Shown in pieces: positions 1-64,000 of a DNA stretch of 64,000 nucleotides. The notes beneath the pieces were generated by a model, which was given only the letters and a program-made list of their open reading frames with translations, was not told where the DNA came from and ran no database searches. This DNA is from Candidatus Doudnabacteria bacterium. GTDB taxonomy: Bacteria > Patescibacteriota > Doudnabacteria > UBA920. How positions within the stretch are numbered: the stretch's first letter is position 1; every line of letters begins with the position of its first letter. The stretch spans positions 73,094-137,093 of the forward strand of contig CAWBGV010000031.1 of NCBI GenBank assembly GCA_963788395.1, read 5' to 3'. Position numbers and translations under genes: made by a program.

Positions 1-362
1 CCAAAAATGATCCGGCCGCGGGAGCGGCTAAAATTTCGATTGTCGAAAAACCCTGGGGGTTCGAAATCTGGCTGGCTTATACCGACCATTACGCCATGAA
101 ATTTTTAATAGTCAACCAGGGTAAGCGTTTTTCATTACAAAAACACCAGCAGAAGGAAGAAAGCTGGTTAATTCAGGCCGGCCACCCCGAAATCTTTTTG
201 AACAATCAAACAATTCAAGCCAGCCCCGGAGATGCATTTCATACGCCGGCCGGAACCGTGCATCGGGTAACCGCGGCTAAAGACGACGTGGTTATTTTAG
301 AAGTTTCAACTGCCGAACTTAACGATGTAGTCCGGTTGGAAGATGATTTTGGCCGCAATTAA
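1..362 (+). CDS. Cupin-domain protein (mannose-6-phosphate isomerase type II C-terminal-like), 5' end outside the window
   Basis: Frame 3 is open from position 3 and reads ...EKPWGFEIWLAYTDHYAMKFLIVNQGKRFSLQKHQQKEESW..HRV, the classic cupin WG.E.W / SLQ.H motif set. The ATG at 96 is internal, and the stop is at 360-362. Confidence 0.6.
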   Translation, partial: KNDPAAGAAKISIVEKPWGFEIWLAYTDHYAMKFLIVNQGKRFSLQKHQQKEESWLIQAGHPEIFLNNQTIQASPGDAFHTPAGTVHRVTAAKDDVVILEVSTAELNDVVRLEDDFGRN

Positions 363-1141
363 TCAAGATCAAGTTTTTGAACCTCGGTCAGTAATTTTTT
401 ATGCAACCCGCTGCCGCTGGCCAGCAGGTTTTTTGATTCTAAGGTAAAAGGCTGGCCGTCCCAGGTCGTGGCTTTGCCGCCGGCTTCGGTAACCACCAGG
501 CCGGCCGCGCCTACGTCCCAAATGTTGACGCTGGCCTGGATAAAATAATCGTACGTGCCGTCTGCCACCAAACAGGTTTCCCAGGCCGAGCTTCCCAGCG
601 TGCGGGTTTTTTTCATTTTGGTCACGAATACCGGCAGAATTGTGGCTGCAGATTTAGTATTTCTGCCCCAGCCTACGCCGCCGTAGGATTGCTCCAAAGC
701 AACTACAGAAGATGCCTTGATTTTTTGAGCATTTTTATAGGCGCCGCGGCCCCGAACCGCATGGTAGGTAACAGCGGTGGCCGGATTGTACACTACTCCC
801 ACGAGCGGTCCCTGATTATCCCACAGCGCAATGGAAATACAGCATAGGGGTAAGCCTTGGATAAAATTGGTCGTACCGTCGATCGGGTCAATAATCCAAA
901 ACCAGTCTTGGTCCTTTATGGATTTATCCCATCCGCCTTCTTCACCGATAATTTTGTGCGTGGGAAAGTGTTGCAAGATCCGCCGCCTGATCAATTTTTC
1001 TATCCGAACGTCAACTTCCGTGACTAAATCCCGCGGGTTGCCGCCTTTGGATTTTATGTGTTTGGGTTTTCCAAAATTTTGGCGGAATGTTTTGCCGCCT
1101 TCCCGGGCGGCTTTCAAGGCAACAGTCAGGTATTGGTCCAT
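359..1141 (-). CDS. Inositol monophosphatase family protein (SuhB/IMPase-like)
   Basis: 260 aa with the WIIDPIDGTTNF metal-binding motif and the second WDVGAAGLVV.EAGG motif typical of the IMPase/FIG family. Confidence 0.85.
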   Translation of the reverse strand: MDQYLTVALKAAREGGKTFRQNFGKPKHIKSKGGNPRDLVTEVDVRIEKLIRRRILQHFPTHKIIGEEGGWDKSIKDQDWFWIIDPIDGTTNFIQGLPLCCISIALWDNQGPLVGVVYNPATAVTYHAVRGRGAYKNAQKIKASSVVALEQSYGGVGWGRNTKSAATILPVFVTKMKKTRTLGSSAWETCLVADGTYDYFIQASVNIWDVGAAGLVVTEAGGKATTWDGQPFTLESKNLLASGSGLHKKLLTEVQKLDLD

Positions 1142-1262
1142 GAGGATTGGTGGTATAATTAGTCTAGTTTCGAAAACCGCTATAAATCGAATCTACGAAT
1201 AACTGCGAATCCACGACTAGAAAGCACTGGATTCGTAGATTCGATTTATATCCGCTCCCCCC

Positions 1263-2528
1263 ATGAGAATCATAGCAGACCTGCAAATTCATTCCAAATA
1301 TTCGCGCGCTTGTTCGCAAGATCTGGTCCCTAAAAATATTGCGGCCTGGGCGCACAAAAAAGGCATCGGGGTTATTGGTACCGGTGATTTTACGCATCCC
1401 CGCTGGCTGGCTCAGTTAAAAGAAGAACTGCAAGAAACTAAACCGGGCCTGTATCAATTAGTCGATAAAACTTCGCCGGTTGATTTTATGCTGACCGCGG
1501 AAGTATCGTCTATCTATAAACAGGATGATAAAGTCCGGCGCGTGCATAATATGATTTTCGCGCCCAACTTTGCGGCTGTTGATAGCATTGTCAGGGGATT
1601 GGAAAAGCAAAACGCCAATTTAAAAGCTGACGGCCGTCCTATAATGGGTATTCATTGCGATGAGCTGGTTAAAATCGTCAAAGAGGCGGACGAGCGCAAC
1701 GAAGTTATTCCCGCCCACGCCTGGACCCCGCACTTTGGATTATTTGGTTCACTATCGGGATTTAATACTATTGAGGAAGCGTTTGGCAGTCAGTCCAAGT
1801 ATATTTTTGCCATTGAAACGGGCCTGTCCAGCGACCCAAAAATGAACTGGCAAATTTCTAAGCTCGATAGCTTGTCGTTAGTTTCTAATTCCGACGCCCA
1901 CAGTCTGCGTAAAATCGGGCGCGAAGCCAATGCTTTTGAAATTGATCCCGAGCGACTGTCGTACAACGAAATTTTCAGAATTATTCGTGAAAAAAATCCG
2001 GCGGAATTTTTGTTCACCATCGAGTTTTTTCCGGAAGAAGGCAAGTACCATCTCGATGGCCATCGCGATTGTAAATTTTCTTGTCTGCCGGCGGAAACCA
2101 GGCGCCGGGGAGGGGTTTGCCCAGTATGTGGTAAAAAGTTATTGGTCGGTGTGTTAAGCCGGGTGGATGATTTGGCTGATAGAGAATGGGGGTTTGTGCC
2201 GCCGCGGGCGGTGCCGTTTAAAAACATTATTCCTTTAGAAGAAGTTATTGCCGACACGTTGGAGGTCGGGGCAGGCAGTAAAAAAGTGGCGGCACTCTAT
2301 GACAAAATGACCGTTCAAAAACCGGAGTTTGAAATTTTGCTTGATTTGCCTGAATCTGAACTTGCCACAATTGGTTCTTCTGACGTGGCGCGGGCAATTA
2401 TGCGGGTACGGGAAGGGAATGTCCACGTCGAAGGCGGCTACGACGGAGTCTTCGGCAAAATTCATATTTTTGAGGAAGCTGAACGGGAAAAATTATTCAA
2501 AAGGCCTAAACAAACGAGCCTTTTTTGA
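1263..2528 (+). CDS. Endonuclease Q-like PHP-domain nuclease (TIGR00375 family)
   Basis: 421 aa. ADLQIHSKYS, GTGD, RRVHN, PAHAWTPHFG, SNSDAHS, GKYHL, CPVCGKK zinc ribbon and a C-terminal KQTSLF all parallel Pyrococcus EndoQ as I recall it. Confidence 0.7.
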   Translation: MRIIADLQIHSKYSRACSQDLVPKNIAAWAHKKGIGVIGTGDFTHPRWLAQLKEELQETKPGLYQLVDKTSPVDFMLTAEVSSIYKQDDKVRRVHNMIFAPNFAAVDSIVRGLEKQNANLKADGRPIMGIHCDELVKIVKEADERNEVIPAHAWTPHFGLFGSLSGFNTIEEAFGSQSKYIFAIETGLSSDPKMNWQISKLDSLSLVSNSDAHSLRKIGREANAFEIDPERLSYNEIFRIIREKNPAEFLFTIEFFPEEGKYHLDGHRDCKFSCLPAETRRRGGVCPVCGKKLLVGVLSRVDDLADREWGFVPPRAVPFKNIIPLEEVIADTLEVGAGSKKVAALYDKMTVQKPEFEILLDLPESELATIGSSDVARAIMRVREGNVHVEGGYDGVFGKIHIFEEAEREKLFKRPKQTSLF

Positions 2529-2539
2529 ACCAATTATAA

Positions 2540-2570
2540 AGACGCCAACGTAGCTCGGGCGTCTCTTGTA
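2540..2570 (+). terminator. Hairpin downstream of the EndoQ-like gene
   Basis: AAGACGCC-(11 nt loop)-GGCGTCTT followed by an A/T-rich tail. Confidence 0.4.
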
Positions 2571-2613
2571 ATTATTAACCTATGTGGTACACTATCCGGG
2601 AAAGGAGGCTTTT

Positions 2614-5202: not shown

Positions 5203-6463
<1,261 letters not shown>

Positions 6464-13277: not shown

Positions 13278-13309
13278 AACAGGGTACCCCTTTAAAGGGG
13301 TACCCTGTT
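13278..13309 (+). terminator. Palindromic terminator hairpin (13-bp stem, TTTAAA loop)
   Basis: AACAGGGTACCCC-TTTAAA-GGGGTACCCTGTT immediately after the GNAT stop. Confidence 0.55.
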
Positions 13310-15659: not shown

Positions 15660-16759
15660 ATGCAAAAATTCTTTATTTCCCTGAAAGCCCTCACCGTTGC
15701 CTCGTTTAAAATGTATTTCCGAATCGCGGAGCGGTTATTTTTACGTTAATTGTTCCGCTGGCACTGTTGGCAGTATTTGGATTTTTGTCTAAAGGCGGCG
15801 CAACTACGATCAAACTCGATGTTACCGATTATGCCCAAACTCAGCTTTCTCAAAATTTTCTAAAGGCGCTTCAAAATGTTTCGGTCTTTAAGGTCCAGCA
15901 AGTCTCGGAAAATCAGGCAGGTTCTGATCTGGGAAAAGGCAATATTGATCTGGAAGTAGTTATACCTAAAAATTTTGGGCAAGCGGGCGCCGCCGGCCAG
16001 CCTAAACCTGCCAGTATTAAAACGTATTATAACCAGGCTAATCCGGCCAACGGGCAAATTGGAAACTTAATCATTACTCAGATTGTTGACGGTATTAATT
16101 CCCAAATTTCTGACGTCCCGCAAATCGTTTCAGTTCAATCTACCGGCGTCCAAACCAACAATTTGGGGTACTTTGATTTTATCTTGCCCGGCATTTTAGC
16201 CATGATCATCATGCAGTCCGGATTGTTTGCCGTGGCTTTTGCCTTTGTTTCGTTTAAAGCCAGCGGGGCTTTGCGCCGTATCCAGGCCACACCGGTACAT
16301 CCGCGAAATTTTATTATTGCTCAAGCAATTACCCGTTTAGTCATGACTTTGATTACCGTGGCAATACTCATCGGTTTCGGCGTAAAGTTTTTTAGTTTCC
16401 ACATGCTGGGGAGTTATTGGGATTTTACCCTTGTGGCAATTTTGGGAATTTTGATATTTTTGGGTTTTGGTTTCGCGATTGCCGGCTATGCCAAAGATGA
16501 AAATCAGGTTGCGCCGCTGGCCAACGTTATCCAGTTGCCCATGCTTTTACTTTCGGGCATCTTTTTTCCGCGCGACGATTTTCCTCACTGGCTGCAAACG
16601 GTGACTAATTATTTTCCGTTAACGTATTTAAGCGATGCCATGCGCCACATTGCTAACGAAGGATTGCACTTGACGCAGATAATGCCGGATTTATTGGGAC
16701 TGATTATTTGGTGCGTTATAGTCTTTGTGATTGCGATTAATTTGTTCCGGTGGGAGTAG
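15660..16759 (+). CDS. ABC-2 family permease, interrupted by a 1-nt frameshift near 15720
   Basis: ATG 15660 gives MQKFFISLKALTVASFKMYFR, then the frame changes (A-run CGAAT at 15720-15724) into NRGAVIFTLIVPLALLAVFGFL..., the first transmembrane helix of ABC-2 permeases. The ORF-track TTG start at 15767 would truncate that helix. Confidence 0.7.
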
Positions 16760-17009
16760 GGGAGGGATGAAACATGAAGCATGCTGTACGGGATTTGGGA
16801 GCTGAATTTTATGACGGATTTAGAGAGGTTGAAGAAAATTTTATATAAGCGACGAAAAAAGCGAATTCCTGCACGGGTCTTAAACCAGCTTAAAGCATTA
16901 CTGTTTCATCCGCTGTTTTGGCCGCCCTTGCCGGCACCGATTTATAAACGTAAATAGGGATTAAAAAAACTCTCCACTGCCGGAGCGTTTATTGATTGGT
17001 ATATTTTAC

Positions 17010-18478
17010 TTATAGAGCTGCCAAATCTATGGTTTGATCAATCCGGACCTGGGCAACAAAATCCGGAACGTGGGAGACCATAAGCAGGGCGCTTTGGTAA
17101 TCACTGAGGGCTTGGGCAATAATAGGTAAATGTCGGAAGTTAATATGATTAGTGGGTTCGTCCAGAATAAGCAGTCCGGGTTGTAGCAAAACCAGCCGAC
17201 AAAACGACAGGAGTCCTTTTTGGCCTTCCGACAGAGCCGCAATGGGTTGATCCAGGAGTTTGCCATCCAGTAAAAAACCCGCGGCGGTGGAACGCAAAAT
17301 GTGCTCATCGAATTTTTGCATAACTTCCTTGAGGGCATCAAAAGCTTTTTGGTCAAAGTTAAAATTGGAGAAATCTTGTTTGTAGTAGCCTATGAGGATG
17401 TCTTTGGCCACTGTAAAACCTTGTCCGGAACCGGCAGTGATTTTTTCCAGCAGGGTGCTTTTGCCGATGCCGTTTGGGCCGGTAATAATTACGTGGGTAT
17501 TTTTTCGTATCGTCATGTCTAGGTCTTTACTGACTACTCCATGTTCACGGATAGCGGAAAGAGAAGAGAACGTTAAAATTTTTCCATCAAAAAATGGGTC
17601 AAATTCTTGACAGGGGATGGTAAATTCGCGGATGGTCTTGTCTTCCCGCCGAACTTCTACCACGCTTTCTTCCGCTGCTTCCGCCGCTTCCCGCATGCGC
17701 TTGGCTACGGCGCGCAGTTTGCCGCCTTTGTGGGCGAAGACTTCGGCTTGGGAACGCTTCTCTTTAATTTCCATTTGCATGCGGGCGTTTTGCAAATTTT
17801 CCCGTTCAATCCGGTTTTTAATTTCTTCGACTACGTCGTAATAGTTCCCGGAGTATTGTTCAATTTTATGGGTAAAGACATCTAAATATAAGACACCATC
17901 GGAAAAGGCGTTGAGAAAATCGGCATCGTGGGAAATAACCACGACAGTTTTTTCGTACATCATCAAAAAGCCGGTCAAATGTTCTATGCCTTGTTGGTCA
18001 AGATTGTTTGTAGGCTCGTCCAAAAGTAAAATATCAGGATTTTGGATAAGCGCGTGCGCCAATAATAATCGCGCCTGCTGTCCGCCGGAAAAATGTTTAA
18101 CGGTTTTTTCTAAAGGCAGATCTACATTTACGACTTCAAACACGTCGCGGATTAACTTATCCAGATTATATTTTTTTTCAGCAAAAGCCGTGGCAAAATA
18201 ATCCCGGACCGATAATTCGGCAAGGTCTTTTGGCATAACTTGTCTGGCGATAGCAATTGAAGCGTCTTTGGGAGTAATCAATATTTCCCCTTAAGTTAGG
18301 TTTGATCTCGCCGGTAATCATTTTTAAAGAGTGTGGATTTTCCCGCGCCGTTCTGTCCCATAAGCGTGACTCTGCTGCCGCTGCGAACGCTAAAACTCGC
18401 CTCTTCCAAAACAGGTTTGTTGTGCCCGTACTCAAACGTGACGTTTGAGAATCTTAAAATAACGTTATCGTTAGCCAT
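17010..18478 (-). CDS. ABC-F family ATPase (EttA/Uup/YheS-like, tandem ABC domains), two frameshifts near the N-terminus
   Basis: Three ORF pieces (18296..18478, 18178..18435 and 17010..18281) read GQNGAGKSTLFK | MITGEIKPNLR | GEILITPKDASIAIARQVMPKDLAELSVRDYF... The breaks are at a TTTTT run (18321-18325) and a CCCC run (18287-18290). There is a second Walker A ITGPNGIGKST and signature FSGGQQARL. Confidence 0.85.
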
Positions 18479-18854
18479 ATAGTAAAAAAGAAACCCCGCT
18501 GATGGGGTGAAAAACTATATTGATTGTAGCAGCTTAACCGCCTCCGGTCAATCAAAATAAAACCCGCCACAAAGAGGGGTTTTTGGTCACAGTAGGCCAC
18601 AGCTTGACTTAAATATCGTAGCACATTGGTTTTTTATGTCAATATCTGGTGGACAGCATAGCTTCCGAGTTAAATCATATCTGGGACTACGTTTGGCGTT
18701 GGTATCCTTGGGTCAAAGAGTTAGAAACGGCCAATGTTGCTGGGTAATTTGGCGTGTTTAGGTCACACATGCCAGTATTTAAACGCTAAAATTTAGGCTT
18801 TTAATGCTTCTGTGCCGACTTTTTCTATAAGTCTTATAAATTTTTGCGCAGCTT

Positions 18855-20022: not shown

Positions 20023-20174
20023 AAAATTTATATATAAAGAATAGCTCTTATTTAAGAGAAAGTAAAAGGCTTGTGGAGTTAATTGTGTTTAAAATACCAA
20101 TATTTCTGTAAATTTGACAGGATTTTTACGTCTGCTATAATATAACAAAATTGTTATATTAGTAAACAAAACTA

Positions 20175-20547: not shown

Positions 20548-20548
20548 T

Positions 20549-42024: not shown

Positions 42025-42048
42025 AATGGTAATGACAAATTTTAAATT

Positions 42049-42564: not shown

Positions 42565-42570
42565 AGCTGT

Positions 42571-43794: not shown

Positions 43795-43922
43795 ACATGG
43801 TTAGTAGAGGGTTATAAGTTATAGCCGCCAGTATAGGTATAGGGTATAAGTGATAAGGTTTTTTACTTACAACTCATGACTTAAACCCAGACTGGCCGCC
43901 ACAACTAATACCCTATTACTAT

Positions 43923-45194: not shown

Positions 45195-45251
45195 AAAATG
45201 AAGTGTCTAAGATTTTAACGATAGTTAAAATCTTAGACAGATTGATATATG

Positions 45252-45848: not shown

Positions 45849-45850
45849 AA

Positions 45851-47266
45851 TTAAAACAGTGTTCCCGGAGTCTTTACCTCGGAATAAATCGGTTGATGCA
45901 CTTCTTCGGCGCGTTCCAGTAAATCTATGGGATAATTGCCTGTAAAACAGGAAGTGTTAAAAACCTTTTCCGGCAAGCCGGTGGCGTGGATGAGTCCCGG
46001 CAAAGATAAAAAGTACAAACTGGTCGCGCCTAAAAATTGTCGCACCTCTTCCACCGTTTTATTGGCAGAAATCAAGTTTTGCTGCTTGGGAGTATCAATT
46101 CCATAAAAGTCAGGATAGACAACCGGCGGTGAACTAATCAGCAAATGGACCTCTTTGGCGCCGGCTTCAAAAATCATTTTCACCAGTTGTTTGGAAGTGG
46201 TGCCGCGGACTATGGAGTCGTCCATGACCACGATTTTTTTACCGGCCAAGACTTCGGGCAGGGGTGTTAGTTTAAGCCGTACGCCCAAATCGCGGCTGTG
46301 CTGTTCGGGTTGAATGAACGTGCGGTGGATGTAGCGATTTTTGACCAGCGCCATTTCGAACGGTAAATTTAAAGCTTTGGCGTACCCGCTGGCCACGGGA
46401 ATGGCCGTTTCCGGCACGGGAACGACCATGTCGGCCGCCACCGGAAATTCTTCGGCCAGCCGCGTGCCGCAATTGTGGCGGACTTGGTAGACGGATTGCC
46501 CCAGTAAGTTACTATCGGGTCGGGCAAAATAGACAAATTCAAAAATATCCAGTTTAGGATTTGGTTCGGCAATTTGGATGGAGGTAATTCCATGGCTATT
46601 TATAATTACCATTTCTCCCGGCTTAATCTCACGGATAAATTCCGCGCCCACAGTATGGAAGGCGCAGGTTTCGGAAGCAATCACATAGCCTCCGTTAAGT
46701 TTTCCTAAAACCAGCGGTCTGATTCCGTAACTGTCACGGACAGCCACTAAACTATCTTGTGTTAAAAGTGTTAGTGAAAAAGCGCCCGTAAACAGGGGAA
46801 AACTTTTTTCGACGGCTTCGGCAATCGAATGGTCGTGGTCCAGGTAGTAGGCAATGGCTTTGGCCATAAGTTCGGAGTCGCTGCAATCTTCGGTTGGAAT
46901 GTCTTTGCCTTCCAGAAAAGTTTTGAGCGCGGTTATAGAAGGCAAATTTCCGTTATGAGCCAGGGCGACTTGGCCGTTTATTACAATGGGCTGGGCGTGT
47001 TTTAAGTGGGAGCCTTCAGAGGTAGAATAGCGGTTATGGCCAATGGCAATATCGCCTTTTAAACTTTGGATAGTCTCTTCGTTATAGACGTGGCTGACCA
47101 GCCCCATATTTTTGTAGCAGTCAAGGTGGTGGCCGTTGGATACCGCAATCCCGCTGGATTCCTGCCCGCGGTGCTGCAGTGCGAACAATGCAAAAAACGC
47201 CAGACGGGAAACGTCGAGTCCTTTGCCGTAGATGCCGAAAACCGCGCATTTTTCGTTTAGGTGCAT
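45851..47266 (-). CDS. purF: Amidophosphoribosyltransferase
   Basis: 471 aa: CAVFGIYG (N-terminal nucleophile Cys) and the PRTase motif VVMDDSIVRGTT. Confidence 0.9.
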   Translation of the reverse strand: MHLNEKCAVFGIYGKGLDVSRLAFFALFALQHRGQESSGIAVSNGHHLDCYKNMGLVSHVYNEETIQSLKGDIAIGHNRYSTSEGSHLKHAQPIVINGQVALAHNGNLPSITALKTFLEGKDIPTEDCSDSELMAKAIAYYLDHDHSIAEAVEKSFPLFTGAFSLTLLTQDSLVAVRDSYGIRPLVLGKLNGGYVIASETCAFHTVGAEFIREIKPGEMVIINSHGITSIQIAEPNPKLDIFEFVYFARPDSNLLGQSVYQVRHNCGTRLAEEFPVAADMVVPVPETAIPVASGYAKALNLPFEMALVKNRYIHRTFIQPEQHSRDLGVRLKLTPLPEVLAGKKIVVMDDSIVRGTTSKQLVKMIFEAGAKEVHLLISSPPVVYPDFYGIDTPKQQNLISANKTVEEVRQFLGATSLYFLSLPGLIHATGLPEKVFNTSCFTGNYPIDLLERAEEVHQPIYSEVKTPGTLF

Positions 47267-47283
47267 GTAGTATGTATCGGGTA

Positions 47284-47673
47284 TTATGTATTATGTATAC
47301 TGCGGTTGGTAACGGTTTTCATCAATCCGTGAATAAGCTTACTCACTACTATTGTCTGATTTGCTGTCTCTAAAAAAACTTCCTTTGTTACATAACCCAG
47401 ATCTTTCGCAATCAGTAACTGATTTTGTACTTCTGTCAGTGAGCCGAGCGCGATAGCATAAAATTGCATTTTTTCTTTTGCAAAATTTCGGCTGAAACCC
47501 TCGGCAATATTGGAAGAAATTGAGACAACAGCGCGGCAAATCTGTGAGATTAAACGAAATATTTCTTCTTTTGGAAAAGATTTGGTTATTTTATAGACCA
47601 TCAAGACTAATTTATGAGCCTCTTTCCAAGCCTTAAGATCAGTAAAAGATTTGATTTTAGTATCCATACCCAT
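47284..47673 (-). CDS. Four-helix-bundle protein (TIGR02436 / bAvd-like, 'rRNA intervening-sequence protein' family) inserted within the pur operon
   Basis: 129 aa: ...EIFRLISQICRAVVSISSNIAEGFSRNF.... It is flanked by 13-bp inverted repeats GTATTATGTATTA (47281-47293) and TAATACATAATAC (47691-47703). Confidence 0.7.
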   Translation of the reverse strand: MGMDTKIKSFTDLKAWKEAHKLVLMVYKITKSFPKEEIFRLISQICRAVVSISSNIAEGFSRNFAKEKMQFYAIALGSLTEVQNQLLIAKDLGYVTKEVFLETANQTIVVSKLIHGLMKTVTNRSIHNT

Positions 47674-47702
47674 ACATTATACACGATACTTAATACATAA
47701 TA

Positions 47703-48473
47703 CTAGGAGAGAAAGTAGCCGACTGCGTTTTGGAATATTTTGAAACCTGGACCATATTGGGGGAGTTTTTTACCGCTGCGCGACAATTTTTCTTTTAGGT
47801 ATGTCCAGTGCGGCAACTGGGTAAAGAATACGGCCCGTTCGGGATGGGGCATCATGCCCAGAACCCGGCCACTGGAGGCAGTGATAGCGGCAATATCTGC
47901 GATCGCACCATTGGGGTTGGCTTCGAGGTTTTGAAATTTTGAGACTTCCCCTTTTGTGTAGGTCAGCGTTATGGCTTTGTCCTTTTTGAGATTTTTAAGC
48001 CCTGCGTTGTCTATATAATAGTTGCCTTCGCCATGGGCGATGGGTAATGAGAAAGATGATAATCCTTTGAGCCACGGAGAAATCCCAGTGGTGGTGAGAT
48101 CTACCCACCGATCAAGATAGCGAGCTTTTTTATTTGAGGTTAAGGCTCCGGGCAGTAATCCGGCTTGCGTTAATATTTGAAATCCATTACAAATCCCAAT
48201 TACAAGTTTATCTTTGCTGATAAATTGTTGCAGTTGGCTGGACAAATGATTTTTGAGTTTGTTGGCGTAAGCTTTGCCGCTGCCGGTGTCATCTCCAAAA
48301 GAAAATCCGCCAGGCACGGCTAATATTTGGTAGTTGGAAAGTTTTTTCTCTCCGGCTACTAAATCATTAATATGGACAATGTCCGCCCGCGCGCCAGCCA
48401 GCTCAAAAGCGAACTTGGTTTCGTCTTCGCAATTAAGGCCGTAGCCAGAGAGTATAAGAACTTTTGGTGTCAT
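47703..48473 (-). CDS. purQ: Phosphoribosylformylglycinamidine synthase, glutaminase subunit
   Basis: 256 aa: a class-I glutamine amidotransferase (GICNGFQIL, and His in GMMPHPER). Confidence 0.9.
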   Translation of the reverse strand: MTPKVLILSGYGLNCEDETKFAFELAGARADIVHINDLVAGEKKLSNYQILAVPGGFSFGDDTGSGKAYANKLKNHLSSQLQQFISKDKLVIGICNGFQILTQAGLLPGALTSNKKARYLDRWVDLTTTGISPWLKGLSSFSLPIAHGEGNYYIDNAGLKNLKKDKAITLTYTKGEVSKFQNLEANPNGAIADIAAITASSGRVLGMMPHPERAVFFTQLPHWTYLKEKLSRSGKKLPQYGPGFKIFQNAVGYFLS

Positions 48474-48537
48474 TTAATAAAATAAATTAATTAATGTGCA
48501 TTGCCACGTGAGTCCGCAGGTTGGACGCGGAAAGAGG

Positions 48538-51420
48538 TCAATAATTCTGTAAAGGTTTTTTATAAACCTGCTCAAGAGTTTTAACGGGAATGTCCATAAT
48601 TTTTTTACCGTCAGTGCCAGCTACCGTCAAAGATGATCCTTTTATTATCCCGATTTCCGTTACCGCGATGTTTTTCATTAGGGCTTCGAATTGTTTTTTT
48701 AGTTTTGGATTAATGCTGACCAGAATTCGTCCCTGACTTTCAGAGAAGAGGGCGGTTTGGTGGTCGGGAACTTGGCCGGGTAGGTTTTTGACGGTCACCG
48801 ACGCGCCCAAGTTGCCGGCAATGCACATTTTTGACAGCGCCGCAGCCAGGCCGCCGCGGCCGACGCTGATGGCGGAGGCTAACAGTTTTTTTTGTACAGC
48901 TTTGTAAAAGGCCCGGTAGAGTCGGAGATTTTTAGCGGCGTCAACGTGTGGTACCGTCCCGGCGCTTATTAATTCGCTGCCGCCAAATTCGGGAAAAGTT
49001 TCGCCGAGCAAATAAATGCTGTCGCCGGCAGCTTTTGCGTCGAGCGTGACTGTCTTGGTAACATCTGGAATTACTCCTACAGTAGAGATAAGCAGCGTCG
49101 GCGGAATGGAAATTTTGAGCGGCTGGCCGGATTCGTCAAAACCTTTAAAATCGTTAAACATGCTGTCTTTGCCGGAAATAAAAGGCGTGCCAAAGGCGGT
49201 GGCGTAATCGTAGCAGGCTTTCACGGCTTGTTTTAACTGGCCTAAACGTTCCGGTTCGTTGGAACTACACCAGCAAAAATTGTCGAGCAGCGCCAGTTCG
49301 TCGATGTTTGCCCCGGCAGCTACGGCCGCGCGGATGGCGCTGTCGATGCTGCAAGCAGCGGATCGGTAAGGGTCTAATTCTGCGGCTTTGGGGTGCAGCC
49401 CCAATGACAGTATGATCCCTTTATCCGACGTGAGGACTGGCCTCATTACTGCAGCTTCGGCATTAACGCGTCCTTTGCCTTGGAGCGGTTTGGTCACGGA
49501 CGTACCTTGTACTTCGTGGTCATATTGCTGCGAAATAAATTCGTAGCTGCAAATGTTGAGCGCACAAAGTAAATTGAGGGTTGTTTGATTGTAGTCGATG
49601 CCGAGATTATGAGAGACTGGCGAGTTCATCACCGTCACCGGTTTGCTTTCGAGATGTTTAATCGGCACGCCGTCATGCAAAAAATCCATTTGCATGTCCA
49701 TGACTTTTTGTTTTTGGTATTTGACCACGCAGCGGCCGGTGTTGGTGAATTTTCCAATTACCGTGGCCTCGACGTCGCGCTGCTTCATGAGCCGCGAAAA
49801 ATCCTTCCACTTATTTTTTGGCACGGCCAAGGTCATGCGCTCCTGCGATTCGGAAATCCAAATTTCCCAGGGCTGCAGGCCGGGGTATTTTAGGGGCACT
49901 TTATCTAAATAGACTTCGCAGCCACCGGACTCTTTGGCCATTTCCCCCACGGAGGACGAGAGTCCGCCGGCGCCGTCATCGGTAATGCTGGTATACAAAT
50001 TCTTTTGCCGTGCTTCGCGGATAATTGCGTCGCTAAGTTTTTTCTGGGTAATCGGATCGCCAATCTGCACGGCCGTGGCAGGGGAGCCGCTGTTTAAGCT
50101 TTCGGAAGAAAATGTGGCGCCGTGGATGCCGTCTTTACCCACGCGTCCGCCAGCCATAACAATGTAGTCGCCGGGGCGCGCTTTTTTAAGGTGCGAAAGG
50201 CGGCTGCCGATTTTACGGGGAATGAGCCCCACGGTACCGGCAAAGACTAAGGGTTTGCCGCGGTAGCGAGGGTCGAAAAACACAAATCCCAGCGGCGTGG
50301 GAATGCCGCTGCAATTGCCGCCGTTGTTAATTCCCGCCACCACGCCCTGCATAATGCGCTCAGCGGAAAGCATTTTTTGGGTTTTGTCTTGGTCGCGATA
50401 GAGCTCGGTGGTATCGGCAGGGTCGGCTAAGCAAAAACCATAAAAGTTGGCAATGGGTTTGGAGCCTAAGCCAAAACCTAAGGCGTCGCGGTTAACACCC
50501 ACGATTCCCGTGACTGACCCGCCAAAGGGATCGAGCGCGGATGGGGAGTTGTGGGTTTCGACTTTGTGGGTAATGAGATATTCGTCGTCAAAAGCAATGG
50601 CCCCGGAATTGTCGGTAAAGACGGAAACGCAGCAGTCATCTTTTCCTTTTGCTCGACGGATGGTTTCGGTCGCGCCTTTAATGTAGGTTTTATATAATCC
50701 TTTCTCCAGTTCGTCGAGCGGTGAGGCAAAAATGGTGTGCTTGCAATGTTCGGACCAGGTTTGGGCCAGACTTTCCAGTTCAAGATCGGTCGGCTGACGT
50801 TTTTGCAAAATAAAATAATCGCGGATAGCGCGCATGGCGTCTAAATCTAAAGCCAGCGGTCCGCGGCGTTGGCCGGAAGAGTCGGGAATGCCTTGTTTGC
50901 CAATGGCAGCCAGTTCTTCGTCGGTAATATTTAAATTTATTTTTAAAGTTTTGCGGCTGCCGGTAAGTTTAACGCGGGGAATGGTTAAAGGCACGCCGCT
51001 GATTTTGATTTCCGCGGCCGGAATGATTTTTGCGCGCTGAATCAGAGGATTGTAGAGACTGTCGGCAATGGTTTGAAGATCAGCGGCGGTAAGTTTGCCG
51101 GAAATAAAGAAAACAGCCGAGGAATAAGTATTCTGGCCGTCTTTAAATTTGTGTTTGAGCCCGTCGGCAATGGTTTGGCGCGCGGTGGCGCCTACGTTGT
51201 CCGTGACTCCGGGTAAAAAACCTATTTCTATGGCCGCAGTGAAATTTTTTGGTCCGCGGTAAGGCAGGTCGGCTTGCTCAATAACCGGATTAGTCAGGAG
51301 GGCGGCTGCTTTTTGAATATCTTTGGCCGAGAAGTTTCCGTCTAGGATGTAACTGTCTGCTACTTCCACGGATCCCAGGGAACCGCTCAGCCCCAAATTA
51401 TGAAATTGTTTTAAACGCAC
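48538..51420 (-). CDS. purL: Phosphoribosylformylglycinamidine synthase II with a fused N-terminal PurS-like domain (PurSL)
   Basis: 960 aa, uninterrupted. There is an about 200-aa N-terminal extension before the PurL AIRS/AIRS_C duplicated core. GTG start. Confidence 0.85.
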   Translation of the reverse strand: MRLKQFHNLGLSGSLGSVEVADSYILDGNFSAKDIQKAAALLTNPVIEQADLPYRGPKNFTAAIEIGFLPGVTDNVGATARQTIADGLKHKFKDGQNTYSSAVFFISGKLTAADLQTIADSLYNPLIQRAKIIPAAEIKISGVPLTIPRVKLTGSRKTLKINLNITDEELAAIGKQGIPDSSGQRRGPLALDLDAMRAIRDYFILQKRQPTDLELESLAQTWSEHCKHTIFASPLDELEKGLYKTYIKGATETIRRAKGKDDCCVSVFTDNSGAIAFDDEYLITHKVETHNSPSALDPFGGSVTGIVGVNRDALGFGLGSKPIANFYGFCLADPADTTELYRDQDKTQKMLSAERIMQGVVAGINNGGNCSGIPTPLGFVFFDPRYRGKPLVFAGTVGLIPRKIGSRLSHLKKARPGDYIVMAGGRVGKDGIHGATFSSESLNSGSPATAVQIGDPITQKKLSDAIIREARQKNLYTSITDDGAGGLSSSVGEMAKESGGCEVYLDKVPLKYPGLQPWEIWISESQERMTLAVPKNKWKDFSRLMKQRDVEATVIGKFTNTGRCVVKYQKQKVMDMQMDFLHDGVPIKHLESKPVTVMNSPVSHNLGIDYNQTTLNLLCALNICSYEFISQQYDHEVQGTSVTKPLQGKGRVNAEAAVMRPVLTSDKGIILSLGLHPKAAELDPYRSAACSIDSAIRAAVAAGANIDELALLDNFCWCSSNEPERLGQLKQAVKACYDYATAFGTPFISGKDSMFNDFKGFDESGQPLKISIPPTLLISTVGVIPDVTKTVTLDAKAAGDSIYLLGETFPEFGGSELISAGTVPHVDAAKNLRLYRAFYKAVQKKLLASAISVGRGGLAAALSKMCIAGNLGASVTVKNLPGQVPDHQTALFSESQGRILVSINPKLKKQFEALMKNIAVTEIGIIKGSSLTVAGTDGKKIMDIPVKTLEQVYKKPLQNY

Positions 51421-53475: not shown

Positions 53476-53821
53476 ATGAATTCATTGGATAAAATGACTA
53501 AGGATATTATTGCCTTTCGCGACCGGCGGGATTGGAAGCAGTTTCATACGCCCAAAGAGCCTATCACTATCAATAATGCTTGAGGCGGCGGAGGTGGGGG
53601 AGCATTTTCAGTGGAAAAATCCGGAAGAAATTAACGCCTATATAAAAAAGAATAAAGACGCGATTGGTCAAGAATTGGCAGACGTATTGCAGTATTTGTT
53701 TTATTTGGCCTACGAACTACATGAGATTTTAGAAAAAGCTTTTTATCAAAAGTTAAAGAAAAACGAAAAACGCTTTCCGGTAAAAAAGATCAAAGGAAAA
53801 CACACCAACCATTATAAATAA
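53476..53821 (+). CDS. MazG-like nucleotide pyrophosphohydrolase (all-alpha NTP-PPase), 1-nt frameshift at an AAA run
   Basis: MNSLDKMTKDIIAFRDRRDWKQFHTPK | SLSLSIMLEAAEVGEHFQWK...ELADVLQYLFYLAYEL, the EE..E/D motifs of MazG-like proteins. Confidence 0.65.
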
Positions 53822-53826: not shown

Positions 53827-54519
53827 ATGGCCAGAATTTCCAGAAAAAAAATTAAATTACTATTTTCGATATCGATGGCACTATTTTCCGCTCCAGCTTA
53901 GTTATAGAGCTGATTAATGGCATGGTTGAGATGGGCGTTTTTCCGCAATTGGCAAAAAAAGAAATGGAAAAAGAATACCTGGCGTGGCTGGATCGCAAGG
54001 GTGATTATGAGCATTACATTAAAAAAGTTATTCAAATCCATTTGCGCTATATCGCCGGCAAAACCAGCGCGCAAGTTGATGCCGTGGCTAAACTGGTCGT
54101 TCAAAATTTAAAAAACCGTGTCTACCGGTATACCCGCGGACTCATCCGCGATTATGAAAAGCAGGGCCATCACCTTATGGCCATTTCCGGTTCACCCACC
54201 TATTATAGTGTCCCGTTTCGCCAAACTTTGGCATTTCGACACCTACTTTGGCAGCGTTTACGAGGTCAAAGACGGGATTTATACCGGGGACGTTTTAAAC
54301 CTAGATACCGTTAATAACAAGCACAAAGTCCTCCATGGCTACCTTACCGCCCATCATTTAAAAATTGATTTTGCCAAAAGCATCGCCGTGGGTGATACCG
54401 ACAGTGATGTCTCTATGTTGGAACTCGTGGGGCATCCTATTGCCTTTAATCCCAACCTGGCTTTAGCAAAACGGCCAAAAAAAACCACTGGCCTCATAGT
54501 CGTAGACGCAAAGACGTAA
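53827..54519 (+). CDS. HAD-superfamily hydrolase, subfamily IB (phosphoserine-phosphatase-like), two frameshifts
   Basis: MARISRKKIKLLF | FDIDGTIF (motif I, after the TTTT run 53864-53867) ...GHHLMAISGSP | IIVSRFAKLWHFDTYFGSVYEV (after CCC 54195-54197) ...GDTDSD (motif IV). Confidence 0.7.
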
Positions 54520-55288: not shown

Positions 55289-55693
55289 GCGCGAACTTAA
55301 ATTTTTTCTAAAGTCCTGGTGGATAACCCGGTTGACGGTCGCGGGCATGTACGTTATTATGTACATATAGTTTTTAAGAAACCGTCATGCCGCGATTAAT
55401 AAAATTTCAAATTGAAGTCTATTATGCATGGCATGCCCAATAAAATTAATTTGGGAACCGTGAATATTTACGCCGAAAACGCGGCTCAGGCTTTGGAATT
55501 GGCCAAAGAACAAATGGAGAGCGGCGCGGTTAGTTCAAGGCCGGAACTTTGTAAGACGGTTCCAACAAAGTTGGCCTAAAAATTTAAAAGCCCCCTGGGT
55601 TACAACATTGACGCAAGTGGTAATTTGAGGTACAGTACGAATCAGAGTAAAAACACCTGCTGCTTTAAATGAACTTTGTCCCCAAGGAGCTTT

Positions 55694-56059
55694 ATGAATT
55701 CTAAAACAACGCTGCCAATTTCCGAGGCCCGTAAAAAAATTTTTGAGCTGGCTGAAGAAGTTCAAAAACCGGGCCAGTACTATGTTCTTACGGAGAAGGG
55801 GCGCGCTAAGGCAGTACTGCTTTCGGCAGATGAGTTTGCTTCGTGGCAGGAAACGCTCGAAGTCATGAAAGATTTTCCGGAGTTAAAATTTGACATTCAG
55901 CAGGCCGAGGCGGATTTTCAGACGGGTAAATTTACTACTTTAGCCGGATTATTGGCTCGCCAAGGCTTTGTCCTGGCTGAAAAAGAAAAAAAGACTTATG
56001 CGGCATCGCGTCATCATTCCCAAAAAGGTAGAACTGGAACTCGAAAACGCAAAGCCTGA
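55694..56059 (+). CDS. Phd/YefM-family antitoxin (3' end uncertain)
   Basis: SD AAGGAG before ATG 55694: MNSKTTLPISEARKKIFELAEEVQKPGQYYVLTEKGRAKAVLLSADEFASWQETLEVM. The ORF continues 60 nt into the toxin gene through an A7 run (55986-55992), so the true stop is probably earlier. Confidence 0.6.
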   Translation: MNSKTTLPISEARKKIFELAEEVQKPGQYYVLTEKGRAKAVLLSADEFASWQETLEVMKDFPELKFDIQQAEADFQTGKFTTLAGLLARQGFVLAEKEKKTYAASRHHSQKGRTGTRKRKA

Positions 56060-56237
56060 ACACAAGGCCAGGATTTTAGCTGCTTTGGCTGCACTCTCCG
56101 CCGACCCGCTTGCCGGCCAAAAACTTAGCGGGGCTTATACCGGAACTTATTCCTACCGGGTTTGGCCGTATCGGATTATCTACAAAATTAAGGGCCGGGA
56201 AGTCCTGGTTCTATTAATAAAAATTTCACAAAAATAA
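55998..56237 (+). CDS. RelE/ParE-family toxin
   Basis: MRHRVIIPKKVELELENAKPEHKARILAALAALSADPLAGQKLSGAYTGTYSYRVWPYRIIYKIKGREVLVLLIKISQK, the canonical RelE layout. Confidence 0.7.
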   Translation: MRHRVIIPKKVELELENAKPEHKARILAALAALSADPLAGQKLSGAYTGTYSYRVWPYRIIYKIKGREVLVLLIKISQK

Positions 56238-57082: not shown

Positions 57083-57695
57083 CTAGTGTCCGGGGTGGCG
57101 AGTGGTAATCGTCACGATGTAGCGCTTAATGCCTGTTTTATCATTCAGTTCCGTAACTACGTGGCCGGAGGCTTCATGGCTCCTGGGCTCCTGGAACTGT
57201 AAGTAAGCTCCTTCGTAGACTTGTCTGCCAAATACGGTAATTTGCTCCGAGCCGATTGGCCGGGTCAAAAAACCAGTTTTGGGGGTAGTAATGGGGAGCC
57301 GAACTGGTCATAAACCTAATGGCCGGTTGGGGTTCCGAAACCATTTCACCGTTTGCGTCACTGATGCTGCGCGGTTGTACCCAGGTTTTGGTGTATTTGC
57401 CGGGTACATTCCAGAAAATTCCGGCAAACGAATCTGGCTTGGTGGCGGTAATGTTGATGTCATACAGCAGGCTGATGGTGCAATTGGGACAATCTATGCG
57501 AGGCATCTTTTCATTTTTCATGGCATCAAGGCCATTTTGCAACATAGCAGTCAGGGCGGCGGGGGTGGGAACATAACAATCAACTTGGTTTTGTTCCGGG
57601 GGCCAGATTTGGGCGGGCGGGGTGGTTTGTGGTTGTGCATATGTTCCAATCATGGGCAGGAACACTGCGAAAAACATCGTGACCTTTGGGGTCAT
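57083..57695 (-). CDS. Secreted hypothetical protein, frameshifted near the C-terminus
   Basis: Signal peptide MTPKVTMFFAVFLPMIGTYAQP and Cys-containing motifs DCYVP...DCPNCT. The C-terminus continues in ORF 57083..57268 (...ITTRHPGH). Confidence 0.4.
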
Positions 57696-57819
57696 CTGGT
57701 GTTGCCTCCTTGTGAAAAATATATTATACCATATTGCCGGACGGTTTTCTCTGGCGCGGATTTTTCTGCTATAGTTATGGTAGTCAATCAATTGCTCCAG
57801 AAACCTAGAAACAAAAACC

Positions 57820-58536
57820 ATGGCCAGAGTTTATGGGCGAAAAAGCGCTTACTTAGAACAACGCGATATCCTTTATTATGTTTTATCGGCAGCCTTTCCA
57901 GTGCTGGTCTTGGCGGTGCTCTATGGAATTCTCAAAATTTTTGGGAAAGACAACGATATTGTTCTCTTAATCGCCATAGCGGTTTTAATTATATTAGTTA
58001 TTGTATTTGAACCTGTAGAAAAACTCTGGGGCCGCAGAGCCGGAAAATATTCTAGAGGATTGCACGGAGAAATGGCGGTGGCTAAAATGTTGAAAGATCT
58101 GCCGGACACTTTTGCCGTATTTGAAGATGTAACCATTGGGAAGAATCGCGGCAATATAGATTTTATAGTTGTCGGGCCGCCCGGTATTTTTTTATTGGAA
58201 GTGAAAAGCCACGGCGGGATCATTGGTTACAACGGCTTTGGGCTGACTCTGAACGGGAAAGCTATTCGCGATAAAGATTTTTTCCGACAAATTCACGGAG
58301 AAGTTTGGGCCTTAAAAAATTACTTACTCATGCAGCTTGGCCACAGTCCTTACATTCACCCGGTCTTGGTTTTTGCCAATGACTACGCCATAACTCACTT
58401 TGGTTACCGTCCGCTTCGGAATGTGTTTATTATCCAGAAGGAAGAATTACCAGCATTGTTTGTGCACTTTCCGGCAATGCAGTACATTACGCCTCAGCAG
58501 AAAATTGAACAGGTTTTGGCTAAGGTTGTGAAGTAA
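57820..58536 (+). CDS. NERD-domain (nuclease-related) membrane-anchored protein
   Basis: 238 aa, intact: two transmembrane helices, then GEMAVAKMLKDLPDTFAVFEDVTI...GNIDFIVVGPPGIFLLEVKSHGG. Confidence 0.8.
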   Translation: MARVYGRKSAYLEQRDILYYVLSAAFPVLVLAVLYGILKIFGKDNDIVLLIAIAVLIILVIVFEPVEKLWGRRAGKYSRGLHGEMAVAKMLKDLPDTFAVFEDVTIGKNRGNIDFIVVGPPGIFLLEVKSHGGIIGYNGFGLTLNGKAIRDKDFFRQIHGEVWALKNYLLMQLGHSPYIHPVLVFANDYAITHFGYRPLRNVFIIQKEELPALFVHFPAMQYITPQQKIEQVLAKVVK

Positions 58537-60481: not shown

Positions 60482-63192
60482 ATGAAAAAGATCTTCTTAT
60501 GTTTTAGTGCGATTATGCTTGCGGTTATACCGCTTGCGACGCAAGCGGCGGCTATCGCCCCCTATCATTATTTAAAAATCATAACAAATACTTTGGGTGG
60601 TGACGGGACTTTTATGTTTACTGTCGCGAATTATGAATTATCAGAAAGTTTTTCTAATTCTATCGATATCAGCACGCAGAGTGGCACCGGCCAGTATACA
60701 TATAGTCCGCCAAATGTTGGTTCGGGGAACCACTACTTTTTTACCGAAAGTTTACAGCCAGGATGGAGTAGGCAGGGTATTGTATGCACCAATGATCAAA
60801 ACGGTCCGGTGGGTTTGCCCTTAAACGGCGGCATGGTGCTTCCGTACTATTCCTATACCACCACTACCTGTATAGTTACAAACCAAAAAACTGCAACTCT
60901 GAACCCGATATTGATTGTGCCGGGGATCATGGGCACGGAAATAGACAAAGGGACTGAATTATTATGGCCGGATCTGGCCAGAATGGCGAACCCGTTTCAT
61001 TCCGATGATTTTATGGACCCTTTGTCTTATCAGTCTAACGGGCTCCCTGTGGATACAAGCTTAAGTATTGGCAGTGTCTTAACAAATCCTGATCAGGTTT
61101 TTGATTACTCCGAAAAGTTACAAAGCGATCTTATTGCGGCAGGGTATGTCCAGGGTCTAAATCTTTTTACCTTTCCCTACGATTGGCGGCGGGATATTCA
61201 GCAAGTTGCTGAGCAGGATGATCCTCAAATGCTCAACCCCAGTTTGCGGCAAACCATAGACAATATTTTAGCCTCTACTGGAGCGCAAAAAATTAGTATT
61301 ATAGCCCATAGCCAGGGTGGGTTGGTTGTTAAGCGGTTGTTAATGGACGTTCCGCAATACCAAAGTAAAATAGATAAATTGGTGTTTGTAGGCGTCCCAA
61401 ATTTAGGCGCGCCCAAGGCCGCCAAAGTTTTGCTTTATGGCGACGATATGGACGTAAATTTTGCAGGTTTGGGATTAGATCCGCTGGAAGTCCAAAAAAT
61501 CGCGCAAAATATGCCGGCAGTCTATCAGTTGTTACCCGGTTCAGAATATTTTAATCACGCCGCCGGGTACATCGCCAAAGGCCAGCCGGTGAGTCCGGAC
61601 ATTCCTGTGCTACACATTACCAATTTGAGTGCCACAGCTACCGTTGAATATTTGAAAGATCAAAATTTAAACAGCGCCTTGATTGATGACGCTAATAACT
61701 TCCATTCCGAAAGTTTTGATAATTTCGACTTGAGCACTACCGGTATCACCGCATATAACATTGTAGGCTGCCAGGCCGGGACTTTAGGAAAAATAATTAG
61801 CAAGCCCGATGGAGATTATAATCTACAGATTGTGGCGGGGGACGGAACCGTTCCGCTGATTTCTGGCGTTCATATTCCCGGGGCGGCAACCTATTATGCT
61901 CTGCAATCCAGCCACGGGCTAATGCTAACTCAGGATGGCATTCGTAAACTAATAGTTAATGTCATGACCGGTGGCGTGGCTGCCAATAACAGCAATATTA
62001 GCCAGAACATTTCCGATTGCAAATTTAACGGTACTGCGGTTTCCGCCCATAGCCCGGTACGTTTAGATGTCTACGACAGCCAGGGACGGCACCTTGGCCC
62101 CGTCTCCGGCGGGTTTGATTCCCAAATTCCCAATGCCGATTACGAAACCATAGGCCACGACAGTTTCGCCTATTTGCCGGACGGGGGAATATATACGGTT
62201 CAGCTCACCGCCACTGGAGCCGGAAATTTCAGTTTTGACGCTTCCATATTCAGGATGGTCAAGTCATCAGTACGGCCTACTATGACCACGTACCAATTAC
62301 GGCCAGTTCAACTGCCCAAATTAATTTAAATTCGGAGAATAACCAGACGATTCAGTTAGATATCAACGGAGACGGAGTAGTTGATAAATCGATTGCACCT
62401 TCGGCCGAACTGGATGCTAATCAGTCGCAGGATACCGCGCCTCCGGTTACCGCCGCGGTCCTGAGCGGCACGCAGGGGCAGACAGGGTTTTTCCGGAGCG
62501 CGGTAAACCTACTGTTTACGGCGCACGATCCGGTGGTTGCGGGATTAGAAGGCCAGACCTCCGGGGTCCTGGCCACAAGATATAATTTAGATGGCGGCGG
62601 TGACCAAACATACAGTTCTTCTCCACCGGTGATAGTAACCGCCGAAGGTAATCACACCGTTACTTTTTTTTCGACCGACCGGGCCGGCAATAACGAGCCG
62701 ATACAATCAATTCAATTTGTTATTGATAAGACCCCGCCGGAAGCCGAAGTAACATTTGACCCTCTCAAAAAAGATATTGTCTTTAGCGGCCTTGATAATC
62801 TCTCCACCTCGTCAGGTATGACTATACAGGATGCCGATGATCTCGTAGTTTTAACCGATCAAGCCGGAAACACCACCACCCTGACCCTGAAAGACAAAGA
62901 CCGAAAACGCTCGCTGAAAGCAGAAATAAAATCGCTAGCATATAATGGCCAAGCCGTTGATTTGAGTAAGAATCTTCTGCATTTTGATTGGTTGTTCAAC
63001 GCCAAAGGTATCTTACAAAGGTTAAATCAGCAAGTCGAGTCTAAAAAAGGTTTAAACGCGCTGGCACTGTATACGCTGGGAAAAACATTAATTACCGGGA
63101 AAGATGCCGCAGGCCAGGTTAATCAAATTTTAGACGGTTTAGTTTTGCTTAAAATTGTAACCAATAAAGGTGATTTGTGGTGGAAATATTAG
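60482..63192 (+). CDS. Large secreted lipase/esterase (LCAT/PGAP1-like alpha/beta hydrolase) with C-terminal Ig-like repeat domains, 1-nt frameshift near 62250
   Basis: Signal peptide MKKIFLCFSAIMLAVIPLATQAAA, an N-terminal beta-rich domain, the lipase core with the nucleophile elbow ISIIAHSQGG, then ...GNFSFDASIF | QDGQVISTAYYDHVPI... and repeated ...DRAGNNEP...TPPEAEV Ig-like modules through to 63192. Confidence 0.7.
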
Positions 63193-63290
63193 CAGAAGCT
63201 ACAAAGACGTCCGTGACCAAAAGTTCGGAACTTAACTTAACTTGTTCGCTTAAAGGTCGAAAATTTATTATTAATACAATTTTACTTTGT

Positions 63291-63521
63291 ATGCCAGAAC
63301 CACATACCCCTCCAGTTTTTTCCAGAAACCTAAAAGCCGGCGCTAAAACATTTTATTTTGACGTCCGGACTTCTAAGAACGGAAAAAATTATGTTGCCAT
63401 TACCGAGCTGCGCACCGCGGCCGATGGCCAAAAAGTTCGCAACAGCCTATCGATTTTCCAGGAGCAATTGGCTGAGTTCACTCAAGCTCTGGAAGAAACC
63501 GTTGAAAAAGCCAAACAGTAA
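63291..63521 (+). CDS. Pur-alpha-like nucleic-acid-binding protein (DUF3276 family)
   Basis: MPEPHTPPVFSRNLKAGAKTFYFDVRTSKNGKNYVAITELRTAADGQKVRNSLSIFQEQLAEFTQALEE matches a single PUR repeat. Confidence 0.55.
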   Translation: MPEPHTPPVFSRNLKAGAKTFYFDVRTSKNGKNYVAITELRTAADGQKVRNSLSIFQEQLAEFTQALEETVEKAKQ

Positions 63522-63526
63522 AGTTT

Positions 63527-63565
63527 TTGCAAGGTCTCCTTTGGATACCCTGAGGAGACCTTGCT
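63527..63565 (+). terminator. Hairpin after the Pur-alpha-like gene
   Basis: GCAAGGTCTCC-(loop)-GGAGACCTTGC 11-bp stem with a weak T-tail. Confidence 0.4.
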
Positions 63566-63620
63566 AAAATCGGCCGCCCGTTACCGTGCCTGATTTTTTT
63601 GTTTGTTATATAATAAAGAC

Positions 63621-64000
63621 ATGAGCCGTTTGAACCAGTTACAATTAGAGTTAAAAAGTTTAGCAGACCGGAAAAAAGGCTGCCGGTTTGGCTTGGTTTT
63701 TTAAAACTGGCAAAGGACAGTACGGCGAAGGCGACAAGTTTTTAGGCATTACTGTGCCGGCCCAGCGGCTGGTGGCGAGACGTTACTTGCTACTTAGTTT
63801 AAAAGAAATTGAAGCGTTGTTAAAAAATAAATATCACGAATTTCGTTTGACGGGTTTAATAATATTGACCGAGCAATTTAAACGCGGAGATGAAAAAGCC
63901 CGGTACCCGAATTTTTAAGTTTTATGTAGCCCAGGCACCGCACGATGTTTCGATCGAGCAGCGAATTCATTTTGGCGATAATGCGGGCGGGACGGCCGCG
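63621..64000 (+). CDS. DNA alkylation repair protein (AlkC/AlkD-like HEAT-repeat glycosylase), frameshifted, 3' end beyond the window
   Basis: MSRLNQLQLELKSLADRKK | AAGLAWFFKTGKGQYGEGDKFLGITVPAQRLVARRY... The break is at an A6 run (63672-63677), and a further frame change is likely near 63910. Confidence 0.5.

Follow-up and report, generated by a model that had tools for sequence, protein, structure and literature searches.

Split reading frames in a 64-kb Patescibacteria metagenome contig segment probably reflect consensus errors rather than gene decay

The question raised by this locus is whether its many split genes are pseudogenes or errors in the assembled sequence. The locus is a 64-kb stretch (the window; ~45% G+C) of a 144,954-bp metagenome-assembled contig from a bacterium of the Patescibacteria, the candidate phyla radiation (CPR). 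It encodes the glycolytic genes eno, pyk and ppsA, glnA, a complete de novo purine operon, a DipZ-type thiol-disulfide protein, a two-component system, toxin–antitoxin pairs and a large serine recombinase. The nearest genomes for PurB, at 73–74% amino-acid identity, are Patescibacteria metagenome-assembled genomes (MAGs) of the Nomurabacteria, Doudnabacteria and Paceibacterota. Pfam finds consecutive pieces of a single domain in neighbouring open reading frames (ORFs) of differing frame for eno, ABC-F, the recombinase and DipZ, and likewise a domain split over adjoining frames for the histidine kinase, purH, purC, HAD hydrolase and alkD-like genes. An earlier reading of the DNA, made without database searches (the sequence-only reading), had attributed at least 25 breaks in about 16 genes to miscalled homopolymer lengths, had allowed that some might be real, and had suggested a second assembly as a check.

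We compared the window with independent DNA of the same organism, seven Logan k-mer assembly contigs from run ERR11630400 that were found by way of intact window proteins and that cover 30,672 bases of the window. Logan contigs are built from 31-mers occurring at least twice in one accession (PMC12424806). We detected seven isolated single-nucleotide polymorphisms (SNPs) and seven insertion or deletion (indel) sites over these bases, the two sequences being otherwise identical, and four of the seven contigs (20.3 kb) had no indels and at most one SNP each. The four indel sites that fall within genes (15721, 18293–94, 18321 and 30782–87) coincide exactly with breaks of the window. Five breaks are spanned by Logan contigs, and at four of them this second assembly does not have the lesion; the one in purH at 37131–33 is shared. 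Contig L085 carries the ABC-2 permease as an intact 366-residue gene (reading ccgCaat at the site) and ABC-F as an intact gene of 488 residues, and contig L083 reads HDLMSPLTAL, the HisKA motif, across the break in the histidine kinase, with the frame open to the end of the contig. All complete genes on the Logan contigs other than purH are intact, and from this, together with the agreement of long runs with the window, we infer that the Logan run is accurate.

Breaks were mapped across the whole window with Pfam profile coordinates and homologue alignments, for which all ORFs of 80 related loci were translated and compared with the window by tblastn; a scan of contigs from related genomes supplied homologues of purH, purC and eno (best relative, 74%). 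We confirmed 23 gene-disrupting lesions in 14 genes (Table 1), with four in DipZ, two each in ABC-F, a DUF4145-like gene, the serine recombinase, purH, the HAD gene and the alkD-like gene, and one each in eno, the ABC-2 permease, higB, the histidine kinase, purC, a MazG-like gene and a lipase-like gene. Breaks do lie at most of the coordinates proposed earlier or a few bases away, and their number comes close to the earlier count. A single small edit at each lesion sufficed to repair all 14 genes, whose products then align with intact homologues end to end. The ABC-2 permease, ABC-F and histidine kinase were repaired by the Logan sequence, and the other 11 by editing, without internal stops and with Pfam or homologue support, to give products of 430 (eno), 187 (DUF4145-like), 121 (higB), 529 (recombinase), 568 (DipZ), 534 (purH), 321 (purC), 108 (MazG-like), 230 (HAD) and 922 (lipase-like) residues and a partial alkD-like product.

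We conclude that nearly all the breaks are probably artefacts rather than decay, given the intact alleles at four of five spanned breaks and the conservation of the repaired genes downstream; the consensus of the window probably contains errors, and its most likely source is noisy long reads with partial polishing or none. Identity to homologues is as high past the breaks as before them (purC, recombinase and purH), and secondary decay, in the form of extra stops, deletions or raised divergence, was not seen beyond them. Between the window and the Logan contigs the difference is ~0.03% in SNPs, with an indel-to-SNP ratio of about 1:1, and natural divergence is a poor explanation because this ratio far exceeds expectation for near-identical sequences. 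On this account, uncorrected base-calling and consensus errors would occur at roughly one per 2.5–4.5 kb. They would comprise single-base indels, about evenly split between gains and losses and mostly in short runs of 2–5, along with some non-run deletions and a few multi-base garbles, and each would shift or stop a reading frame so that gene callers report fragments. Errors would be denser around a 6-kb recombinase island, where fewer or mixed reads may stand behind the consensus. The contig would then derive from noisy long reads, ERR11630400 would represent accurate short-read data, and coverage or strain mixing would lie behind the clustering.

The kinds of lesion bear on the mechanism. 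The sequence-only reading had placed every break on a homopolymer run, which is contradicted at 15721, 18293–94, 30782–87, 26533–38 and eno 5620–23; at the eno break, the first purH break and the second recombinase break the true site is a neighbouring position or short run. Among the nine lesions with a known true sequence, six are changes in run length (runs of 2–7) and three are non-run changes or multi-base garbles. Lesions are enriched roughly twofold over chance at runs of at least four; proximity to a run is nonetheless weak evidence, because nearby runs are common by chance (a randomly chosen position has a run of at least four no more than 4 nt away in 29% of cases, and a run of at least three in 61%). 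Moreover, 105 of the 106 runs of at least six in the 30.7 kb compared have the same length in both assemblies, and differences per run go from 0.08% at length three through 0.2% at four and 0.6% at five to 0.9% at six or more, a trend in which each class holds one event. The longest mononucleotide run in the whole window is at most 8. Insertions and deletions each make up about half of the lesions, and substitution clusters are also present. Homopolymer-length miscalls are not supported as the mechanism in every case.

Flow chemistry (454 or Ion Torrent) produces errors that scale with run length, without isolated-base deletion or multi-base garbling. Some lesions resemble its miscalls, being changes of one base in runs of 4–6 (18321, 26851 and 63672), whereas runs of 7–8 are correct here, and the agreement of long runs, the loss of isolated bases and the garbles make the pyrosequencing or Ion Torrent origin proposed earlier a poor fit. 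A long-read consensus fits better because the indels are balanced, the runs are short, and isolated-base deletions and multi-base garbles occur. Residual indels are well described as a cause of fragmented genes in long-read-only bacterial and metagenome assemblies (PMC9262707, PMC8812927, PMC12007338). As in those assemblies, single-base indels here split conserved genes, are enriched on mononucleotide runs, would disappear with accurate reads and may vary in density with coverage; unlike them, a third of the known-truth lesions are not run-length changes, runs of at least six are nearly all correct, and the platform is undocumented.

Several points weigh against a consensus error as the source of every break. 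The sequencing platforms of both ERR11630400 and the window contig are undocumented, and the comparison with independent DNA covers 5 of the 23 coding lesions. One of the five testable breaks, in purH, is identical in the independent contig. Contig L085 belongs to a slightly different strain near the island (four SNPs, then other cargo), so that its differences in ABC-F might in principle be strain differences, and the three intergenic differences in run length could be natural polymorphism.

Genuine mutation is one alternative, in which the assembled minor-strain haplotype, with its island, would come from a lineage that is decaying or hypermutating and whose pseudogenes are real. The window does contain real strain microdiversity and a strain-specific island, DipZ has four lesions including an in-frame stop, the first purH break recurs in both assemblies, and mobile-element genes such as the recombinase and higB are often pseudogenes. 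So many split genes in a symbiont-like lineage with small genomes also recall the pseudogenes of reductive genomes; unlike those, the split genes here have accumulated no substitutions, stops or deletions downstream. Set against such a history are 23 disabling lesions in 64 kb, reaching eno, pur genes and ABC-F, with no further sign of decay, SNPs of which several are synonymous yet indels in equal number, and multi-base garbles that are atypical of spontaneous mutation. We consider decay unlikely because similarity to homologues is fully kept downstream, essential or operon genes (eno, purH, purC and ABC-F) are among those broken, indels are as many as SNPs, and the sample itself also contains intact alleles. 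Slipped-strand phase variation, as suggested by the sequence-only reading, or programmed frameshifting has next to no likelihood. Some lesions do fall on mononucleotide runs, a G5 precedes the first purH break, and contingency loci likewise change frame at mononucleotide tracts; unlike at those loci, however, the runs are of 1–6 bases rather than the typical seven or more, the targets are housekeeping enzymes rather than surface, restriction–modification or virulence genes, and no two states were seen at one tract. Homologues are all single-frame, and programmed frameshifting at purH was rejected on this ground and because we found no slippery heptamer, no stable stimulatory structure downstream of the break (z = −0.87) and no Rfam element there.

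The purH gene calls for separate weighing. Homologues switch frame at 37131 and then near 37766. At the first break they read IAVGVKHGN, which assigns the missing base to the AAA at 37131–33 rather than to the GGGGG at 37125–37129 named earlier. The second was absent from the earlier list and leaves the C-terminal 57 residues in a third frame. Logan contig L002 has the same sequence at 37131–33 and yields the same truncated gene call of 289 residues, so the earlier reservation that some breaks may be real finds its one candidate here. That purH alone is truly frameshifted in the dominant population, through a recent loss-of-function allele, with all other breaks artefacts, is a possibility that we take seriously while leaning against it. 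The Logan contigs otherwise look accurate, with their other complete genes intact; yet the remaining pur operon is under purifying selection, and if ERR11630400 too consisted of long reads, both assemblies would share any systematic miscall where A4 follows G5. The second purH break lies outside the independent coverage, contig L087 ending 160 bp short of it. A more exotic variant, in which the dominant population has a genuine frameshift yet decodes the gene all the same, perhaps through a −1 P-site slip on GGGGG that would give IAVGGKHGN, seems to us highly improbable; if true, purH of this Patescibacteria lineage would be a recoded gene. In a less exotic version, the purine operon may recently have lost its last step while remaining intact elsewhere.

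The lesions are spread unevenly, as the sequence-only reading had rightly pointed out. Of the 23 lesions, 11 lie in 18.3–27.6 kb (simulation, p ~0.01), beside a strain-variable island, and the 10,153-bp Logan contig that runs from purM to purL matches the window without an indel; that part of the pur cluster is unbroken, as are ppsA and pyk. The 13.4-kb break-free gap is not significant by itself (p = 0.11). Contig L085 follows the window to 18655 and then carries other cargo (a 261-residue protein, DUF3644, Vsr and a Dcm-like fragment; L085 5455–8159), and the JGI contig L088, from a metagenome scan with the recombinase, matches just the 3′ end of that gene to 24635 before it diverges. Because L085 and L088 diverge at the island boundaries, the assembled haplotype has a strain-specific island of ~6 kb, and the consensus may plausibly be poorer there because the reads behind it are fewer or mixed. 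In the window the island occupies a strain-variable integration site beside ABC-F and holds the DUF4145-like gene, a HigB/HTH pair and the recombinase. The SNPs that separate the window from the Logan contigs (12081, 46298 and 16954–18279) are denser toward the island boundary, which suggests recombination near it; those in glnA and purF are synonymous and indicate real microdiversity.

Table 1 Frame breaks and related features in the window (positions 1–64,000)
Feature	Position	Strand	Observation
eno	5620–5623	−	One extra base; sole position joining both frames
ABC-2 permease	15721–15722	+	Lone C missing between G15721 and A15722; not homopolymer
ABC-F	18293–18294	−	Window AA, C in L085 (substitution plus insertion)
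ABC-F	18321–18325	−	Window T5, T4 in L085; true run-length insertion
Strain-variable mobile island	18656–24640		~6 kb; recombinase at right end
DUF4145-like gene	19252–19255	−	One base missing (A4, A5 expected); frame logic
DUF4145-like gene	19335–19338	−	One extra base (T4, T3 expected); frame logic
higB (Gp49-like)	20242–20245	+	One extra G (G4, G3 expected)
Large serine recombinase	23988–23990	+	One extra T (T3, T2 expected)
Large serine recombinase	24247–24248	+	One G missing (GG, GGG expected)
DipZ	26533–26538	+	In-frame TAA and Arg in place of invariant W-T; substitution cluster, not indel
DipZ	26851–26855	+	One A missing (A5, A6 expected)
DipZ	27113–27120	+	One base missing; best fit T between G and A (YVTTW), else AA to AAA
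DipZ	27589–27597	+	One base missing (C or CC)
Histidine kinase	30782–30787	−	Two substitutions and one deleted base within 6 nt
Intergenic	33491–33497		Window T7, Logan T6
Intergenic	33525–33528		Window A4, Logan A3
purH break 1	37131–37133	+	A3, A4 expected; homologues IAVGVKHGN
purH break 2	37765–37768	+	A4, A5 expected; repair gives FPFVDGQKVLIEHGI
Intergenic	37944–37946		Window C3, Logan C4
purC	40184–40186	−	One base missing (CC to CCC, or coding-strand G to GG)
MazG-like	53551–53556	+	One extra base in CCC or AAA
HAD hydrolase	53863–53866	+	One T missing (T4, T5 expected)
HAD hydrolase	54195–54217	+	One extra base; best fit TTT 54215–17, exact base approximate
Lipase-like surface protein	62239–62262	+	One base missing within range; one edit gives a 922-residue ORF
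alkD-like	63672–63677	+	One extra A (A6, A5 expected)
alkD-like	63870–63918	+	Second frame change within range; window ends at 64000

Several of the breaks differ from the runs to which they had been assigned. The permease lesion is the loss of a single base rather than a change in the run 15720–15724. In ABC-F the earlier assignment of one break to the T5 at 18321–18325 was borne out, whereas the other lies not in the CCCC at 18287–18290 but in the AA-for-C change beside it; in the histidine kinase the break assigned to the GGGG at 30781–30784 is the cluster of changes at 30782–87. For eno, shortening the AAAAA at 5615–5619 leaves an in-frame TAA; the join is bounded by stops at 5618–20 and 5623–25, an enolase homologue switches frame at 5609–5622, and the repaired enolase aligns to a homologue without gaps. 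The GGGG named earlier in higB was borne out as the site, with ATG 20175 and the Gp49 domain in separate frames and the Pfam score rising from 49.8 to 61.4 bits upon repair. The recombinase was compared with two intact relatives, P0010 and P0011, which match the window at 97% identity in the first 296 residues and share a 90%-identity cluster with it. Both read DFPLRNYVICE at the first break; at the second they read QVKAGILAQL and QIKTGILAQL, respectively, keeping G-I-L in both, and editing the TTTT at 24251–24254 instead of GG 24247–48 would cost two mismatches. The 87 residues between the breaks, out of frame in the window, are ~89% identical to P0011. Such near-identical intact recombinases are present in unrelated metagenomes.

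For purC, base 40184 is the exact point at which more than 70 homologues change frame; repair restores TPDSSRYW in a protein that covers 100% of homologues with 80% identity, and the tail past the break is 60–83% identical to them. When the repaired purC was used as a query, no intact copy identical to it came up, and the closest match was 81%. In DipZ, all 30 of 30 homologues have GI(V/I)WTPCAGP where the window differs by three substitutions within four bases. Repair at 26851 gives LVQKKANPF, which fits the NP motif of the homologues, the third site corresponds to LPYVTxWY in homologues, and at the fourth the F of the WQF motif is followed in homologues by four residues and then a conserved A. 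Repaired DipZ covers 100% of its homologues, with 70% identity to the closest. Its linker at 26900–26960 is rich in Arg and Cys (MRRPANCRRRS) and the next frame is more linker-like (YNAATGQLSAPQH); a further compensated indel pair may lie here, in a linker that is not conserved.

In the MazG-like gene, ATG 53494 and the MazG-like domain occupy different frames. HAD repair restores LLFFDIDGT and turns the Pfam match into a single piece (1–189 of 189); for its second break TTT 54215–17 fits better than the CCC at 54195–54197 named earlier. The alkD-like repair gives RKKAAGLAWFFKTGKG and extends the Pfam match to profile positions 2–85. The second HAD break, the lipase-like break, the second alkD-like break and the DUF4145-like gene were placed by frame logic only. 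The last of these forms a 187-residue ORF after two edits and is without a close homologue for comparison; the label 'LOG-like' that it had been given was rejected, as Pfam returns just a weak DUF4145 match. A chimeric query of junction-spanning peptides returned almost no matches and was uninformative.

As a whole the frame breaks are an ordinary matter of quality control, not of biology. If the record of this uncultured CPR bacterium were accepted as it stands, pseudogenes would be overcounted, enolase, purH and purC would falsely seem lost, completeness would be scored too low and its metabolism would be inferred wrongly. Two lessons follow: proximity to a homopolymer carries little weight as a criterion where DNA is AT-rich, and k-mer assemblies of the original run offer a quick independent test of a suspect consensus. 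The Logan protein set retains complete genes only (PMC12424806), which may explain how cut genes escape exact look-ups, if the index used follows that rule.

Overlapping ORFs at 57219–58533 (NERD), 28053–29068 and 33636–34687 were considered as breaks and rejected as ordinary overlapping or coupled genes; the overlaps of a Phd/ParE toxin–antitoxin pair and the NERD-domain gene (55676–56237; 57820–58536) are likewise ordinary and not frame breaks. No tRNA gene and no match to an Rfam family was found across the 64-kb window. The complete purine operon (purH, B, C, M, E, K, D, N, F, Q and L; 36310–51420) has an arrangement common to ~80 related MAGs. Within it, in the gap between purF and purQ, lies a gene for a four-helix protein of the 23S rRNA-intervening-sequence or bAvd-like type (47284–47673, minus strand), and the Logan contig has the identical gene. 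The ends of Logan contig L001 fall at window positions 8678 and 13280–13309 on palindromic hairpins that resemble terminators (inverted repeats), and these ends are an effect of the de Bruijn graph rather than a feature of the genome.

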